Assembly (NCBI GenBank): GCA_951406725.2
Contig: OX597825.1
Location: 38,006,001-38,070,000 of the forward strand
Length of the DNA stretch: 64,000 bases
DNA from: Octopus vulgaris
Taxonomy: Eukaryota
Reading direction: 5' to 3'
In this document: positions 2,346 through 56,502 of the stretch, one piece after another
Layout: each line of letters begins with the position of its first letter
How positions within the stretch are numbered: the first letter of the stretch is position 1
Position numbers and translations under genes: made by a program
Notes under the pieces: model-generated
Told to the model about the DNA's origin: nothing
The model's input: the letters and a program-made list of their open reading frames with translations, nothing else
Databases searched by the model: none

Positions 2346-5300
2346 CTACCTGATGTACTCGGTAATTTCTGGAAAAGCGGGGTTTACCCCTTCGTTCCGT
2401 TCTCATTATTGTTCCGCAAATCCAATAACAACGATACAAAGTATGTAACCCATAAAACTGTTCTGTGCATTTACAGCAAATACCGAACTGTCTTATATAG
2501 GGTCTTGATTTTGAAAAATCCCAATAAGTTATGAATAACCAAATCGTGAAGTCAGTTACGTAAGGACATGAAATTAGTTACCCGATAGTAAGAATTCAAA
2601 TATAGTAGCCAAGAAAAGTGTTTTAATGCATTCCCAGAGTATATGTAATTTAGGAGAAAATACCAGTAAGGTATGTATACCAAAATAATGAATAGTGTTA
2701 CGTAATAACAGGCTAATCTGATATGAGGTAATAACAATTCAAAGTAAATGACTCAGAAAAGGGCTTTTGCGCGCCCCCAGAGAATAAAAGCCTTAGGGGC
2801 GCTAGTGTTGAAATAGATTTACAAATGAATGTGGAAATAGGCTGACATTTAGTTTTCAGTTGGCATACAAATAAATTTGCATATAGATTAAAATAAAATA
2901 TCTTAGATTATCAATACATTTACAACACTTACAAATATTACACTTAGATAATTAATACCTGATGGTTTTGGGAGTGTTATTAAGTTTGCAGATCTTCTTG
3001 ATAAACAACATTTTTGGTCTTTCCTTGCGGGGCATAAATAAACAAAGCATTAGGATTTCCGTCTCTTGAGCATCCTACATAAATTTGGCCATGCGAGAAA
3101 ACAGGTTCCGCAAGGTTTAGACTTAGCAGGACTGCTAAGGACTGTCTCTGGGCCTTGTTAATGATCATTGCAAAGCTCAGTTTCAACATGAATTGCAGCA
3201 GCTTGTACTGGAAAGGCACATACGAGGGAGTAAATGGAATCCTAGAAATAAATAGAGGCTCATCGATTTACCAATCAAAATTGTTGTCTCCAAGACTGTT
3301 GGCATCGTCTTCTTTATAATAAGCCGTATGCCATTGCAAAGCGTGGGTGAACCGAAGTTTCGAAGCAGCATAACTGGTGTCCCAACCTTGAGGTGGAAGG
3401 TGTTAGGTGGGAGGCCGGGTGGTGTTAGACTATTCAAGAATTCATTTGGATAATTTACAGCTTTATCGATGTTGAGTACAGTGTGAATGGAATTGTAGAT
3501 GTGACGCCCACCTGGAAACTGTTCCAGAAGTTTGATGTTCAAATCATCTACTCCCACATTCTTGGGAGCTAAAATGGCAAGGGTTCTCAGCCAGTTGTGG
3601 TCTGTAGACTGATTCCTCAGGTTAGCAAACACCTTAATTATTAGTTCCTTTAAATCAGATACCATATATCCAAAAGGCAAGCTTACCCGGCCATCCTTCT
3701 CACCAACTGATGTGCAATTACCTACGTCCAACAATTTCTTTGAATAGATTCTGTCTGCATCATCACCACTGAGCTGCAGTCTCATGTTGGTTGTGAATCT
3801 CAGCTTTTGCACACTGCTCCATAGGTAGGACGACTTGATTCTGGCATTTACCTCATCAGCTCTTGCTCCCTTTGGAACCACGGGAAGAGTTTGTCTAAAG
3901 TCTCCTGCAAGCAAGACTGGCACTTCCCATGAGCCTGGTGTTGTGTTGAGATCCTTGAAGGTCCATGTCAAAAGTTTCAAAGAAAACCTTATGTCTCATT
4001 GTCGCCTCATCCCAGACGATCAACTTGCATTTATTCAGTAGTTTGACTGATGTTGCATTTTGCCTTCTCTTGGACAGGTCCGAAGGGAGTTTGAAACAGG
4101 AATGAGCTGTGGCCACCACTTAGCAGTGTTGCAGTTATTCAACTTGACGTCACTGCTATGGTATGTGTTTCATTTGACGCAGTTTAGTCAGAAAAAGCTT
4201 GATGACAAATGTCTTGCCAGTTCGACCTGGAACATCCAGAAAGAAAAAAACTCCTCTTTCACTTTCAATGCTCAAAATAATGGTCTTCTGAACACCCAGT
4301 TGGTCCTTCTTCAGTTTGTGTTTGTTATCAGATATATACACCGTCATTTCTTCGATGTCATAGCCCAGTTCTTCGCAGGTGCTGAATTGCGAGATTGTTT
4401 GCTTCCTGCCCGGTTGAGGCAGATCAAATGTGGCAACGCTTTGACCTCCCATAGCGTGCACTCGGGTGTACAGATCAAGTAATATCTCATTGTAAAAGGC
4501 GTTATTGATCGTGGCAATTTCTGCTGAATTTTGCCTTTGAATCCTTTGTAGGATGTTCTCAGCCATGCTGTTTTGTGGGTCGATAAAAGCTTGAGAGGTT
4601 CAGGCAAGCCCCATGTTATCAACATGATAGAAAATAGCTGGCACAGTTGACTAGTGCCAGGTCTCAGTGAGTATCGTCCTCCAGTAGTCCATGTTTGGTG
4701 CAGGTTTCACTGTAGGTCGTGTAGAATTCCCCTATGTGTCCTAAAAGGACTGACAGTGTGCAACCGTAGACGCAGAAAGAAGCACTCCTACCGATTAGGG
4801 TGCATAGTGTACACCTGGCCGATGGCTCCACTTCTGAAGACTGCATGATTTCCCCAGCTGTTCCTTGCTTGCATCTGTTCCAGCTATTGTGTGCCCAGGT
4901 AGAATACACGGAAACGTCAACATGCAACAGTGTTCGGGAAAACATCACATTGGGATAATTTTAAGGTTTCTGGTGGATTCAGAAATACTTTTTGAGCACT
5001 GTCGTCTGTGAAATATACACGCTGGCCATTTTGAAGATGTACAGAGTTGGATGCCTCTCGAGGATTTCGAAGCCATCGTTAGAGAAAATATACATGCTCA
5101 ACTTATATTGCTGAATTTTATATTTATATTGCCTCCTGCTCAAGTTCAAAAACCACCATATCTGAGCCCTTATTGATATATTTACATATATATTTAATAC
5201 TTTTTATAGAGTTACATGACTCAATATTAACATAGGCCTGCAATGATTTATACAGCAAAGGGTTGCAGGGCACGATGCATCTGTAGTCAATTTCCATCCT

Positions 5301-10397: not shown

Positions 10398-11707
10398 TTA
10401 GAATATCTTGAACAGCTATTAGGCATAGTGCAGTTGAGAGCAAAAGTAATGCGTTTGGGTATAGCGCTATTCAGGTTGGAGTCGTCATGCGTGGGTGACT
10501 GTATCAGTATATATGATGTTGATTTCGCTAGAAGTCTTTTTTTTATTTAACAGATGAGAGGCAATGTTGACCTAGCAAAAAGTTGCAACATGTGTGTATA
10601 TCTATTGTTCCCGAAATATAACTTTGTGATGCATTTTGCTGTTTCAGTCATCCTGCTATATTATAAGGATTTTCGGAAGGAAAAATTGGTTACTTATAAG
10701 TGAGACCTTAACATACGCACTCTGTTCTATTGTAAATATTACGTAGTAAGAGATTTAGTTCAGTGCTATCGAAACTTTGAAAGGAGCGAACAAGCCATAT
10801 CTGTAAGGGAAGTGTATGTGTTTGAGAATGTCTGCATAAATGTGTGTATGTATATATATATATATATATATGTACATATATTGTTTGTAATTTAGTGAAC
10901 AATAGGAAGACGTGTGCAAAATATAACAGGAGATATGTTGTACACATAGTTATGAATACAGCTTTTGACAGCATTCTTTCGCAGGGTTATTTACAGCCGT
11001 CTGCATCCGTAATATTATGATATAATATCGAATATAAAACAGTATTTATTACGCCAAATATCTATTCGTATAATATTTATTTCCAATAAGTAACGAAGCG
11101 TAACATATCTTTGTTTTATAGAAAAGCTTGTCGTTTTTCATAAATATAAAAGATCGTTTTAAAACATATTTACGTCTAATAATTTTTCAATTATTAGGCG
11201 TAAATATATCAGATAAGGAAATACCAATAAGTGAAACGCATTATTTCAGTTAAAGAGTACAAAGCTTTTTTAACCATGTATTGTGTTCAACACTCTGTAT
11301 ATAAAGAGGAAATATCTGTAATTCCTGCATTATATATTTTTCAGCATACACACACACGCGCGCGCGCGCGCGCAAACAAGATACCCCATAATCACACACT
11401 AATAAGACCATCAACTATTCTTGATATTGCAATAGAAACACATTCACACTATTAGTTAAATAGACTTCACTAATATATTTGTAGTTGTGTGTGTATGTAT
11501 GTGTATGTATTGGAATTTAATGCGCTTGGCTTAGATTTTCCTTTGGGGCTTGCCAGGTCGGAGCAATCTCAAGATTAATCAGCCGAAATTGCGAAAATGA
11601 TCCGGTTCTTGACTGAAGATCGAAGGCTTCGAATGCCCCGTCCGTTTTTTTGTATCGTCTTCTAAATGTTTTGCGTTCTTGTCCCAGTTTGCGTTTTTTT
11701 ACATTTA

Positions 11708-11741
<34 letters not shown>

Positions 11742-11752
11742 ATATATATATA

Positions 11753-11790
<38 letters not shown>

Positions 11791-12374
11791 TGCATATATA
11801 CATATGTATGTAGGTATGTACATATATGTATGTATATATGCATACAATTATATAATATATGTATTAATATATGATTGAACGCCACGCATCCCTTTCCAAC
11901 TAAGTTATATGTTAATTACGATGCGCACTCTTCTATCTCTACTATCTCTTATCTGTCTCTCTCTCTCCCTCTCTTGTTCTTCATCGTTTCTGATTTTCTC
12001 TCCCACCCTTCTCTATTCTTTTCTTCACCTCTTCACTGTTCCCTCTCTCTCACTCTTGCTCATTGACTCCCGTCGCTGACACGTGACGAAAGGGAATCTA
12101 TCTTAAAGACAACATGTACTTATACATGTCGTCTCTCATAAGCTCGTCTTCCTAGCATTCATAATAATTTTCCCATCGTCTTGGCTTAACAGCCCTCACC
12201 GTTTGTTTTTACTGTTTTGTTCTCACTGTCCTGTTCTTGTTACCACTTTCATCCTCCACAAAAAATCTAGAATTTTATTTAATATACCTTGCGGGATAGA
12301 TTGTTTCAACGAAGTCGCGTATTGTCCTTGCCTTCGAAAAAGCGGAGTAGATGATATTGTCAAGATAAACACTG

Positions 12375-12612
12375 CAGTGAATATAGTGACTAATTATATA
12401 AATTTATAAATAAGGATAATATCGATATTATTAAGTGGTTTGACTGCTATTTCCGCAATGTAGTGTCTCTCAGATACCCTTATTTATAGTTGTGAAAAAT
12501 TATTACCGTTGTAGGGTATTTATTCTCATGCTGACGACTTGATAATATCGATATTTAAATATCGATATTATCCTTATTTATAAATTTATATAATTCGTCA
12601 CTATATTCACTG
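12375..12612. repeat. 55-bp inverted repeat (12375-12429 / 12558-12612)
   Basis: CAGTGAATATAGTGACTAATTATATAAATTTATAAATAAGGATAATATCGATATT and its reverse complement, with one mismatch. Confidence 0.95.
12433..12480 (-). ncRNA. Hammerhead-ribozyme-like motif (type I, core with one extra nucleotide), copy 1
   Basis: Minus strand: GGGTAT-CTGAGAGA-CACTACATTGCG-GAAA-TAGCA-GTC-AAACC. Stem I is imperfect (GGUAU/AAACC), with a GUC site and a short helix III. Confidence 0.45.
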
Positions 12613-12719
12613 ACCATTTCGCGCTTACGAGGTAGTTGGCGGGCAATTTAAATCTGACCTTGTACATACGTGCATATATATGTATGTCTGGACGCTCGTA
12701 TATGTAAGTATAACGTGTG

Positions 12720-12781
<62 letters not shown>

Positions 12782-12802
12782 ATTTATGTGCTAATGTGGT
12801 AT

Positions 12803-12861
12803 ATTCAACTGACGAAAGCAGAGCTTATTTGAAGCAAAGTTAGAAATCCAGGATCTTGAAT
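12803..12861 (+). ncRNA. Hammerhead-ribozyme-like motif (type I, canonical CUGACGA/GAAA core)
   Basis: ATTCAA-CTGACGA-[AAGCAGA GCTT ATTTG AAGC AAAGTTA]-GAA-ATCC-A-GGAT-C-TTGAAT: 6-bp stem I, near-palindromic helix III and an AUC site. The base of stem II is imperfect. Confidence 0.6.
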
Positions 12862-12950
12862 TATCCAGTAATATCTTTTTGCTAGTTTATTTTGTCTTTC
12901 TGTCTTATCTCGTGGTGCGATATGAACATTTTAGGTGTTTTTTAGAGTTA

Positions 12951-12994
12951 GGGTTTGACTGCTATTTCGGAATGGCGGTATCTCTCAGATACCC
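12951..12994 (-). ncRNA. Hammerhead-ribozyme-like motif, copy 2 (direct repeat of the 12437-12493 segment)
   Basis: Minus strand: GGGTAT-CTGAGAGA-TACCGCCATTCC-GAAA-TAGCA-GTC-AAACCC. Stem II pairing is poor. Confidence 0.4.
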
Positions 12995-13479
12995 TTATTT
13001 ATAGTTGTATATATATATATATATACATATACATGATAGAAAATAATACCTTCTCTAGTCATATAAAGTCGATTAAGTATTATTAAAGGGGAGGTGAGTT
13101 TAACAATTAATTGGTACCCCTGATGAGATTATAGAAATTCAGCAGTATCATCAATGGAATTTTCGCATTTAGAACTAACGCAAACATAGAAGTAGCTGCT
13201 TTATCATTAATTACAATATAAAATACTTACATGTTCTTGGAATACTAAAATAAATTTGTCGTAATTGCTTTACGATTATTGTTAAATAAAGTTCATTATA
13301 ATATTTTTCCATCATTTATATATTTGTATTATCCTTATTCTTTTTCCTATATATTACTGTATACTGTATATGGTTTGTGGTATGACAGACTAAGGTGCTT
13401 TTTTATCAGTACCGCTGGATTACTTGAACCCAGCTACAGTCACTTAAACATATATATATATATATATGTGTGTGTGCAT

Positions 13480-13563
<84 letters not shown>

Positions 13564-16500
13564 TCTAATGATTATAACACATAGTTCTGAATCTCTGGCT
13601 TTATAATCTATGTATTTTATAGCTGGAAAACATCATAAAACATGTTATATTAGAGATTTTGTTATACACTGTATTATACAATGGATAATACGTACAGCAT
13701 CAAACACTGAAATACGCAAAAAATGTCTGTGTTTTTAACCATTACATTTGCATGAAAGAAATTTCTCCATTTTAGCAGTTTTACTAGATCAGAAACGAAG
13801 TTGATATCGAAATGAACATAGAACATTCAGTGAGTAAAAAATAACTATAAGAGAAATTTGGTACCGCCAATGTAAAATACATGAAATTACAGTGTAATAA
13901 TGCGCAAGTTTTGAATGATACATAATATATCCATTAAGATTGTCACTGCATATTGCGTCAGCTATCATATCAAATACTATGTATCAGATATCGCAAGGTG
14001 CTTGGCAAAAGATATCATAGAAATAGCTGAAATGAAAGGAAAAACGGCAAATATTGTATATGGCATCATATGACTGTCATGTGTTATATGAAGCATAGAA
14101 CACTAAAGTTTACTTCGTATATTTCACAAAATTATATCACTAGCAGCAATTATCAAGTTAAGTAAGTAACACTAGCACAGAAATACCGCAATATATAGAT
14201 AAACGATATTATATCTTTCGTTCAAAATGTTTTAAGACATTGTCTTAATTCAATAAATATCATACAAAATTTACTCTATCAAGTCTAACATGGATTCCTG
14301 AGATACGTTATATTTTATCATATATATTGAAAGCAGCTGCCATCAGACAATGTGGCATACATTGTAGCAAACATCGGTAATTTTATAACTGAGAATAAAA
14401 TCATAAACCGGATACAAACTAAAAAAAAAATTTCCCACACACAATCAGAAATCTGAAAATGTCTCAATGAAGCGAAATAAATAAAACAGAAGTTAAAAGA
14501 AAAGCGACGCTTTCAATACAATTTTCGTCCACACAAAACACTTTCCTTGCAGTCTATTACTCCTACACAAAACTAGCTAAAATATAACACATTAAAGCAT
14601 TATATTCCAGAGTTTACAATTTAATATCTCTAAACAAATAATTTCTTTAAAAATGTGAGACATTTCGATTCAATAAACCCTATTGCTATCTATCAGATAA
14701 AACTTTAACATATTCTTAGAGCATTTGTTTTAAACCATCGGACACATTTTCTATAAAGTTTGCCAGAAATTACGTATCTTTGTATTCAAGAAATTATACG
14801 TAGAAACAAGCCCAAGGCAAACTGATGGTGACGTTTTTGTTTACATAAGTTCAAATGAAGTTAGAATACAAGGAACCTGACCGTTATGAGATTGAGAGAA
14901 TATTTTAGATAGAATGTGCAGATGTTATTTCCTTTCAAACAAATGATTCGTCTGCGAACGTCAGATGCCAATTCTTTCCGGGCACAAGGTATTTAGAAAC
15001 ATGAGCTTAAAATAAATCCAGTACCTAACCTTGGTTTCCCTGCAGTTATATAAGCTCAAAGGTATGGACAGCACGCAGAATGACGGGACCCCAGCATGGT
15101 AAAAGGATAAAAGAATAAAAGAATAAATCTTTCTTTCAGCTACAACACCTAAGCTATGTAACTGAAAAGTAAGGTAAGATAAGATGACAGTACTCAGATG
15201 AAAATATATAATATTAATTTTCCAGGATAGTATATCAATGAAGTACGAGTAACATTTTAACTATCATCTGTGGTATCCAAAATATATACACATGAATTTT
15301 TAAAGGGCTTACAGAGAAGACCAATTCTTATTAAATGCAAGATTCGCTTAAATACGACTAAGCGATACATTGACATTGCGAGGCGCACTGCGTGAACCGG
15401 GTTTCCAGTTTAATATCAACATTGTTCGGAAAGATGTCAATATCAAGGTATAATTTGCACACATGAAATACACTGAAATTTATTAGAAGAAAGATGCGTC
15501 ATGTGTTCTACCTTCAAATTCCCGAAGATCCATTTTCCATGATCATATATAAGACACCACTACATTGAATTGCTTTGGGTAACCTTATTTCCTACGTCGC
15601 ACTGTAAAATCTGGAACCCAATGAATTTAACAAAAACACTGTGTTAATTATGTCGTCAAATGCTCCAATATTAAGTTAACGTTTTCTAAGTCAAATCCAC
15701 GAAATACAAGAGCAGCAGAAAAAATATTTTTTATAGTACTCTGGCGTTAATCATTTTAATGTACAATTTCCTAAACAACAATCTGAGATGCCCAGAAGCA
15801 TATAACAATATTCAAAAGCTAGTAGTTTTAGGAAATTAGTATATACATTTGGCTATTTAGTGCAAACAATGTTCATCCTTCGAAGTTGTCTCACGATATA
15901 ACGAGGTCAGGCGCCTCGTTATTGTGGCAACACGAAATCGGACGCATTGTATTTAAAGACATTAATATAAGAGCTGATTCAGCAAAAACAAACTGTGTAT
16001 TTGAATTTGACCAAAGAGCCTCTATTTTTGCGAATGCGTGAAAATTATAGGTTGAGTATTCAACTTCGTTACCCTATGCCGACATAATTATTAAGATATG
16101 TGTTCTAACAGAATTTCTAAGAAATATCGAATTGAAATTGCTTTAATTTATTGATCTAGGTAATTTCGTACTGACTATTTATTCTGATATATGGATAATT
16201 TCTTACTAATTATTTTACAAATTTATTTAGCGGAGACAATGAATTCGAATCTGAACAATTTTTTTATAAATTGATATAAACAGGGATCCTTGATGCGAAA
16301 GTTCCCTGATCACAAAACGGGATATCTCAAACATTGCAGATACTTATAATTTCAAAGAATTTGTAAGATATGGGCTCAAACGTTTTAGAGCCCATATGAT
16401 ACTTGTGTTAGGAAAATCATATCTAAGTACAAAAGCTGTGGCAGAAATGCTTTAGCTTTGATCTATGAATTTTTAGACACTTGAAGCAAGATTGTAACTT

Positions 16501-25757: not shown

Positions 25758-26105
25758 CAGCGGCCATGCTGGAGTACCACATTTGGTCGAGCAAATTGAC
25801 CGCAAGTCTTATTCTTTGTAAGCCTAGTACTTATTCTATAGTTCTCTTTTGCCGAACCGCTAAGTTACGGTGACGTAAACACACCACCATCGGTTGTCAA
25901 GTGATGTTGGTGGAGGGGCAAACACAGATACACAAACACACAAACACATATCTACGACGGGCTTCTTTCAGTTTTCGTCTACCAAATCCTCTCACAAGGC
26001 TTTGGTCAGTCCGAGACTATAGTAGAAGGCATTTGACCAAGTTGTCACACAGTGGGACTGAACCAGGATTCATGTGGTTGGTAAGCAAACCACTCTTGCA
26101 CCTAT
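25758..26105 (-). mobile_element. SINE family A (left arm of the inverted duplication)
   Basis: Reverse complement has the B box CTGGTTCAGTCCC, the body GGATTTGGTAGACGAAAACTGAAAGAAGCCCGTCG and the tail CCAGCATGGCCGC. Confidence 0.85.
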
Positions 26106-26149
26106 AAATTAATGAGGGTGTAGCATATTTATACATATATATATATATG

Positions 26150-27209: not shown

Positions 27210-27268
<59 letters not shown>

Positions 27269-27295
27269 TAAATATGCCACACCCTCATTAATTTA

Positions 27296-27556
27296 TAGAT
27301 GCAAGAGTGGTTTGCTTACCAACCACATGAATCCTGGTTCAGTCCCACTGTGTGACAACTTGGTCAAATGCCTTCTACTATAGTCTCGGGCCGACCAAAG
27401 CCTCGTGAGAGGATTTGGTAGACGAAAACTGAAAGAAGCCCGTCGTAGATATGTGTTTGTGTGTTTGTGTATCTGTGTTTGCCCCTCCACCAACATCACT
27501 TGACAACCGATGGTGGTGTGTTTACGTCGCCGTAACTTAGCGGTTCGGCAAAAAAG
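27296..27556 (+). mobile_element. SINE family A (right arm of the inverted duplication), 3'-truncated
   Basis: Near-identical reverse complement of 25847-26105. The ORF-track peptides at 25901 and 27293 differ by one residue. Confidence 0.85.
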
Positions 27557-28079
27557 ACCTATTTTACGTCTCCATTAATTATGACTTCATTTGTGGAAAC
27601 GAACAGTAATACCTTCCAAGGTGGAATATTGTGACAAGTAATTGAACAGCAATAAGTCATGCGAACTGTTCATTTTTTTATTAGTAGGATTTCGCTTTCT
27701 TTCCTTCATGCTTAAGTACCTTATTTCGCGTACTTTTCAACTGTAGCGGCAAGACCGTTTGATAGAATGAGGAGAACAGTGTGAAGATGTATTTAAAACA
27801 GGATGTTTATGTTAAAGAAACTAAACATTGTACAAAAGCATTACTATATATATACACACATCTATGTGTGTGGGTGTTTGTGTTTTCCATGCCATTCGAT
27901 ATATCAGAGAGCAGGTGTTAAGCTAATATCTTATTTGTTAAAATTCCAACCTCGTGCGTTATATTTTACATATTGTTCACTGTGTTTACACCATACACTT
28001 AACACATATGCAGACGTTCTCAAAGTTTGACATCGGAAATCCAACTCAGGGCTGTATATTAGATTATTCTCTTAATTAA

Positions 28080-56373: not shown

Positions 56374-56502
56374 TTATTTTATAGAAGGAGCTTCTGCAGG
56401 ACTAGAACTGTTTCATTCAAAAGAAATCATCAGGAAGCTCCTGATGATTTCTTTTGAATGAAACAGTTCTAGTCCTGTAGAAGCTCCTTCTATAAAATAA
56501 AT
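56372..56502. repeat. 131-bp near-perfect palindrome (64-bp arms, 3-nt loop) with an HHR-like core in each arm
   Basis: 56372-56435 is the reverse complement of 56439-56502 with one G:T. The arm begins TC-CTGATGA-TTTC-TTTT-GAAT-GAAA-CAG-TT. Confidence 0.95.

Follow-up and report, generated by a model that had tools for sequence, protein, structure and literature searches.

The closest described relatives of the locus analysed here are the animal non-LTR retrozymes. As portrayed in the parts of the reports drawn upon (PMC7229834; 10.64898/2026.07.22.740005), they share with the present family a non-coding, low-GC sequence, head-to-tail units that each bear a single type I hammerhead, co-occurrence with autonomous Penelope-like elements (PLEs) and a proposed mobilisation by the latter. 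In the 2026 preprint of Li, Clavereau and Pollet (10.64898/2026.07.22.740005), it is argued that such retrozymes derive from PLEs and are not autonomous; one out of nine dimers tested there was cleaved. The unit found here falls within the 51-972 bp range given in that preprint and is longer than the circles of 170-400 nt that Cervera and de la Pena demonstrated in 2020 (PMC7229834). It also differs from the retrozymes in that most copies comprise 1-1.7 units with inverted arms instead of long arrays, and in the hammerhead itself, a dimer-dependent one of PLE-like type whose stem II has an A.A at its base.

Another related system is the pLTR of EN+ PLEs, which carries minimal hammerheads (PMC4209133, PMC8557442, PMC11167929). 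The pattern of PLE insertion, as given in the sections consulted of PMC8557442, includes 5' truncation, partial tandems, an inverted arm, a tail and (TA)n targets. Two internal start sites of reverse transcription have been reported for an anole PLE, and the hammerhead is described in the same source as protein-assisted and dispensable for insertion in vitro (PMC11167929). Dimer-type PLE hammerheads are known to have a palindromic stem III, and minimal hammerheads lying 100-700 bp apart on opposite strands had already been noted in 2014 (PMC4209133). The family here resembles the EN+ PLE pLTRs, as those excerpts present them, in how its copies are built: they are truncated at the 5' end, form partial tandems, have an inverted arm that is itself 5'-truncated and lie at (TA)n targets. 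Also alike are the two 3' ends (the 'tail'), the palindrome in stem III, the position of the sense hammerhead close to the 3' end and the stem-loops in the region where reverse transcription starts. However, the family here has neither an ORF nor a found parent, and its tail is about 100 nt long as against 30-40 nt.

Avsunviroidae and viroid-like RNAs carry ribozymes in both polarities. Like the family here, these RNAs, in the outline that their abstracts give, are small, structured, non-coding, hammerhead-bearing and possibly circular. The present family, in contrast, has a supported ribozyme in one polarity only, is encoded in the genome with a retrotransposition footprint, and its monomer is predicted to fold into a branched structure (about 30-34% GC, 65-68% paired). 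The earlier note on this DNA had proposed an integrated, ambisense, retrozyme- or retroviroid-like family. Its hammerhead-bearing retrozyme or Penelope-type part holds well, while the ambisense ribozymes and the viroid-like architecture find no support. The reading preferred here, at a probability of about 0.72, is that of a ~490-nt family with one plus-strand hammerhead, inserted in trans into (TA)n by a Penelope-like reverse transcriptase-endonuclease, its minus-strand motif being the mirror of plus-strand hairpins. The locus is judged to represent a new family among the known animal non-LTR retrozymes, with predicted self-cleavage and possible circles. In the abstracts covered, neither this family nor an ambisense animal genomic retrozyme is described.

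The window, that is, the whole stretch of 64,000 nucleotides that was analysed, is AT-rich and laden with microsatellites, and it belongs to a 2.8-Gb animal genome of 227 contigs. The element within it is a member of a dispersed, protein-free family of ~490 nt. Each half of the locus drew ~2,000 first-look candidates genome-wide. The monomer measures 515 nt in the window copy (12437-12951), and natural monomers of 484 and 496 nt were seen in two other copies. The longest ATG frame over doubled monomers is 36 aa in subfamily A and 42 aa in its sister subfamily B, and the unit is thus non-coding. A 19-mer of the plus hammerhead has 294 exact matches across the genome, a 22-mer from the minus motif has 668, and a hairpin 20-mer spanning all subfamilies has 1,717; each reversed-pattern control gave 0. 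Subfamily B (about 2,300 candidates) is ~72% identical to A. A FastTree tree built from 162 pieces, each spanning 85% or more of a ~235-nt query and shorter ones being left out, separates the two; it has midpoint rooting only and no outgroup, and hence no direction. Terminal branches in B and A are similarly young (0.033 versus 0.037). Both strands of the whole monomer fold better than shuffles, the plus strand more so, with z-scores of -5.7 for plus and -3.7 for minus.

The family also occurs in contigs of two sequencing runs labelled as other organisms. Contigs of four runs, two of them under other organism labels, span all 30 bins of a family copy; as one of the runs is only guessed to be RNA, and strand and level are not visible in contigs, they are no evidence on expression. 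At L051:1468-2085, in one run guessed to be RNA (run X2), a single subfamily variant next to the core of the hammerhead accounts for 116 of 183 in depth, as against 50 of 17,293 in a large run with that label; coming from one contig, this is a lead to an expressed copy only. A 1.85-kb near-palindromic insertion built of four subfamily-B arms was also observed (L239:1949-3794).

The arrangement of the locus is given in the table below. The copy in the window contains one hammerhead only. The 57-nt direct repeat (12437-12493 and 12952-13008, 88% alike, 515 apart) was confirmed and exists because the window copy exceeds one unit, the repeat being the overlap. Two minus-strand motifs reported within it, of the form CTGAGAGA...GAAA...GTC, are indeed present with starts at 12473 and 12988, and they represent one position in consecutive periods of a single repeat. 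Likewise, the 55-nt inverted repeat (12375-12429 and 12558-12612) is real and owes itself to the inverted second arm. This arm overruns end site 2 by about 40 nt and adjoins another repeat, with no TA run. The palindrome has a form shorter by 14 nt in some family copies.

Coordinates of the features of the studied element in the window
Feature	Position	Strand	Remark
Forward (sense) arm: full monomer plus 57-nt overlap	12437..13009	+	3' end is end site 1, then (TA)n
Inverted, 5'-truncated second arm	12353..12439	-	Head to head with forward arm
Type I hammerhead motif (predicted)	12796..12868	+	Cleavage predicted only
Plus hammerhead, stem I	12803-12808/12856-12861	+	Distal extension 12796-12799/12865-12868
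Plus hammerhead, core CUGACGA	12809-12815	+	
Plus hammerhead, two-part stem II	12817-12841	+	A.A mismatch at base
Plus hammerhead, GAAA	12843-12846	+	
Plus hammerhead, palindromic stem III	12846-12854	+	
Plus hammerhead, predicted cut	after AUC at 12855	+	
Three consecutive hairpins	12946-12960, 12961-12971, 12977-12993	+	Directly 5' of end site 1
Hammerhead look-alike, copy 2	12952..12994	-	Reverse complement of the three hairpins; no N7; mismatched helices
Hammerhead look-alike, copy 1	12437..12479	-	Equivalent position, one period before copy 2
32-nt perfect palindrome	12541..12572	no strand	5' of end site 2
End site 2	12580..12592	+	Internal in window copy; elsewhere commonest 3' end, then (TA)n
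Internal (TA)n tract	12725..12777	no strand	Expanded in window copy
(TA)n target run at 3' junction	13009..13034	no strand	

The order of motifs in this one copy would fit two circularly permuted units of ~250 nt, or else two unrelated families, lying side by side around a TA tract. The two halves are, however, contiguous at many other loci and share no alignment longer than 14 nt, and natural monomers are, as given above, 484 and 496 nt long. The second plus-strand CTGACGA near 12532 is private to the window copy (1 of 109 family copies; 75 read CTGGCCA). The TA tract, earlier taken as a divider between copies, is internal to the unit and appears as (AT)4-6 in 22 of the 28 copies scored. The plus and minus motifs belong to one family, not to independent families adjacent by chance, and the side-by-side arrangement is refuted, with next to no probability left to it.

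The type I hammerhead motif of the plus strand (12803-12861) is well supported as a predicted ribozyme. The motif whose core begins at 12809 goes beyond chance, being family-wide and covarying. Over 88 subfamily-A copies, 94.9% of the cells of the alignment are paired. Five pairs show changes on both sides, with a covariation score reached by none of 500 shuffles; the copies being related, these counts reflect a few changes in master lineages and are inflated by kinship. Subfamily B retains the core and exchanges stem pairs: across subfamilies (n=115), one pair of stem I reads A-U in 85, U-A in 23 and C-G in 5, and an inner pair of stem II reads U-A in 74 and A-U in 29. The core is intact in 95 of the 124 copies scored. 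Duplex formation of stem III with itself was computed at -7.6 kcal/mol for the plus motif, against -2.3 for the minus motif.

Some properties of this motif are unusual. It has an A.A in place of the usual G10.1-C11.1 pair, which the excerpted literature reports as highly conserved in minimal hammerheads; a similar mismatch at the base of stem II is seen in a PLE pLTR of the same genome. The local fold in the window copy is no stabler than shuffles (z +0.45). The hammerhead models of Rfam did not recover the motifs described earlier, there being no match at gathering score in the window, nor at E<=10 in 11500-14000. Rfam hammerhead models may not cover minimal variants of the PLE type.

The minus-strand motif behaves differently from the plus motif. 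Its supposed helices are paired in 70.5% of the cells (112 copies), and 424 of 500 shuffles do equally well or better, with no covariation. Stems I, II and III each contain a pair that is broken in 105-111 of the 112 copies. The core had been said to contain an extra nucleotide; when the G10.1-C11.1 pair is assumed, it is better read as lacking N7, with helices that find no support, and that pair itself reads G-U in 25 of 112. How the absence of N7 affects hammerheads is not addressed in the abstracts covered. Moreover, the minus-strand CUGA tends to sit buried in the mirror hairpin. On the plus strand, the same letters give three hairpins, with 95.8% pairing over 133 copies. One hairpin pair is G-U in 53, G-C in 52 and A-U in 23 of these, and a second is U-G in 104 and U-A in 24; mirrored on the minus strand, the two are mismatched in 54 and 85 of 112, respectively. 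No pair in the hairpin alignment is altered on both sides relative to its commonest pair. In subfamily B, the hairpins are retained, with CUAC or CUAU for CUGA and GCC for GUC, and the differences between A and B fall in plus-strand loops or preserve plus-strand pairs. The pattern of substitutions points to selection for pairing on one strand only at these hairpins. The minus 'hammerhead' is, in this light, likely to be the mere reverse complement of the three plus-strand hairpins. It follows the outcome that the earlier note had itself named as adverse: in A the stems do not covary, and in B the core and the GUC are absent.

The possibility that the motif is a decayed relic of a true antisense hammerhead, such as one acquired early with an inverted piece of a pLTR, and is kept by the plus-strand hairpins, is distinctly unlikely. 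It would account for CUGA, G...C, GAAA and GUC standing in the correct order and spacing, an arrangement rare in shuffles. In 20,000 Markov shuffles, the pattern arose at 0.035% when tight, a form fitted post hoc, and at 1.6% when loose. In the background rate, masking missed later loci, so that the 8 tight-pattern matches all belong to the family and the rate for the loose pattern is too high. CUGA and GUC co-occur in subfamily A (62 of the 104 copies scored) and are both missing in B, and in a tree with no outgroup, loss in B is indistinguishable from gain in A. Among the first 100 genome-wide matches listed, as counted by hand, the CUGA state is found in 46 and missing in 54. Against a relic stands the finding that a complete CUGANGA in the context of the minus motif has 0 matches in 2.8 Gb, and the loop states CTC, CTT, CGT and CAT differ by substitutions, as expected of a free hairpin loop. 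The location of the A-B differences described above also argues against it. A derivation of A and B from a complete minus core through two single-base losses was considered as well and ruled out by the same 0 genome matches.

It has also been considered that subfamily A may be a working ambisense retrozyme, in which both strands self-cleave and replicate by a symmetric rolling circle like Avsunviroidae. Both motifs lie in one unit about 100 nt apart, the minus letters are at least 90% conserved within subfamily A, and the minus strand, too, folds better than shuffles, as given above. Such a ribozyme would, however, have to work with the poorly paired and broken helices, the missing N7, the wobbling G10.1-C11.1 and the buried CUGA. 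Furthermore, subfamily B, though similarly young, has spread with no minus motif, and the fixed 3' ends described below occur in a single polarity. This makes a working ambisense element extremely improbable. A milder version, that subfamily A has a second, N7-less hammerhead on the opposite strand which overlaps the reverse-transcription signal and cuts weakly as a dimer, is very improbable. If it were true, this would be a genome-encoded animal retrozyme with ribozymes of both polarities that links Penelope-mobilised retrozymes with viroid-like replicons, a state gained or lost in the history of one family.

The insertion footprint was studied in 280 distinct pieces at 215 overlapping loci, picked by best matches and patterns and not at random. 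Plus-strand 3' ends fall at two sites about 100 nt apart in 215 of the 280 pieces (window equivalents ~13009 and ~12592), and such fixed 3' ends are seen in one polarity only. By contrast, 5' ends are scattered over the whole unit. On account of the fixed 3' ends and the footprint, the plus strand is taken as the sense strand. A (TA)4 run is found at 185 of 218 ends at the two sites, where the unit itself is TA-like. More than half of the pieces (160/280) have a head-to-head inverted neighbour; 62 are longer than a monomer, and since 10 span the cut site two times, head-to-tail tandems with at least two hammerheads exist. A start lying no more than 6 nt from the predicted cut is seen in only 4 of the 280 pieces, so cutting has left no 5'-end footprint. 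Two-armed insertions number 81: the arms end at different sites in 49 and share a site in 6, and the other 26 include an unclassified end. The footprint of the family matches the published Penelope-like pattern and the two internal start sites of reverse transcription known from the anole PLE. In three instances (L221, L127 and L238), family copies lie tail to tail in the (TA)n tails of other PLEs, and the targets are thus held in common.

The genome does contain autonomous PLEs, with reverse transcriptase plus GIY-YIG frames of 781 aa (several) and 574 aa. Their pLTRs are anchored in (TA)n, and hammerhead-like cores in sense orientation lie in them at 75-150 nt from the 3' end. The unit could, in principle, be the detached pLTR of such an element; the copies would then be 5'-truncated pieces from the end of the parent, and an RNA circle of their own would not exist. 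The dimer-type, non-canonical hammerhead is like that of PLE pLTRs in the excerpts of PMC4209133, and the TA targeting and the position of the hammerhead are as in the autonomous elements of this genome. The search for a parent was also not exhaustive: 148 of 6,136 GIY-YIG candidates were listed and 20 compared. Among these 20 loci and 8 longer regions, compared by DNA and covariance model, no autonomous element sharing sequence with the family was found; the best non-self match (E 0.014) was the hammerhead of another family. Nor was any ORF-linked copy found among the 215 overlapping family loci by tblastn with two or three PLE proteins and by comparison of flanks. The 62 over-length pieces align unit after unit and not to an ORF. 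Fragments of reverse transcriptase or endonuclease in the neighbourhood of family copies are placed tail to tail with them, a common TA run standing between, or else far off, and flanks held in common occur on both sides (among the matches listed), as for unrelated common repeats. A detached pLTR is, on balance, a rather unlikely explanation.

A young autonomous PLE of this genome (L111:906-5672, also at L112 and L113) has a second ORF upstream and a 781-aa RT-GIY-YIG frame that is intact in many copies. It carries short tandem repeats with TGATGACGTC in its 3' region and a 456-nt pLTR, the hammerhead-like core of which reads UUGAUAA, a variant of the U3-A8 type.

If the preferred reading of a trans-mobilised, one-ribozyme family is correct, a tandem copy would be transcribed into plus-strand RNA. 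Two hammerheads would pair via the palindromic stem III and cut, perhaps with the assistance of a protein, and the monomer may re-ligate into a circle. The helper protein would then nick both strands of a TA run, and reverse transcription of each arm would begin at an internal site of its own, the two sites being separated by about 100 nt. The three hairpins adjoining end site 1 are likely to be a recognition signal for the helper reverse transcriptase. On a circle or an uncut multimer, the enzyme would read through the ribozyme junction, and the two cDNAs would finally join at their truncated 5' ends.

Several other features were observed in the window. To the left lies a different high-copy repeat (11860-12354, plus strand; 2,958 first-look candidates), which is truncated at 12354 by the studied element. 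Its intact copies (L245-L253) show parts of a hammerhead whose order is not circular: first come a GUA/GUC site and one strand of stem I, then GAAA-bearing segments, then the other strand of stem I and CUGANGA. The first GAAA is not constant; the second, which is constant, pairs upstream. The order resembles the type-SGC of PMC10085705, as outlined in that source. In the window copy, the first part survives (about 12300-12354) and CUGANGA is gone. To the right, at 13060-13440, is an older repeat with 70-80% identity and 148 candidates; its CTGATGA at 13120 was found in none of nine other copies scanned.

Farther away, 3183-4706 of the minus strand holds broken frames of a PIF1-like helicase (Pfam PF05970 and PF21530 for 3183-3992), likely a Helitron remnant. 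A 311-nt inverted repeat (25838-26148 and 27252-27562, 97% alike, about 1.1 kb apart) may represent the two arms or the terminal repeats of another young element. At 56433-56470, two inverted short CTGATGA...GAAA motifs, with starts at 56441 (plus) and 56433 (minus), diverge from one point and are possibly a small fold-back ribozyme stump.

The locus carries a warning for ribozyme scans, as a CUGA...GAAA...GUC on the opposite strand can mirror plus-strand hairpins. The asymmetry of G-U pairs and a sister subfamily are what expose such a mirror-image ribozyme. The class to which the family belongs is already known; its value is that of a natural data set on the Penelope-type copying of passenger RNAs. 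In it, the arms of one insertion end at different sites far oftener than at the same site, and the hairpins by end site 1 offer a small candidate RNA signal for the PLE protein.
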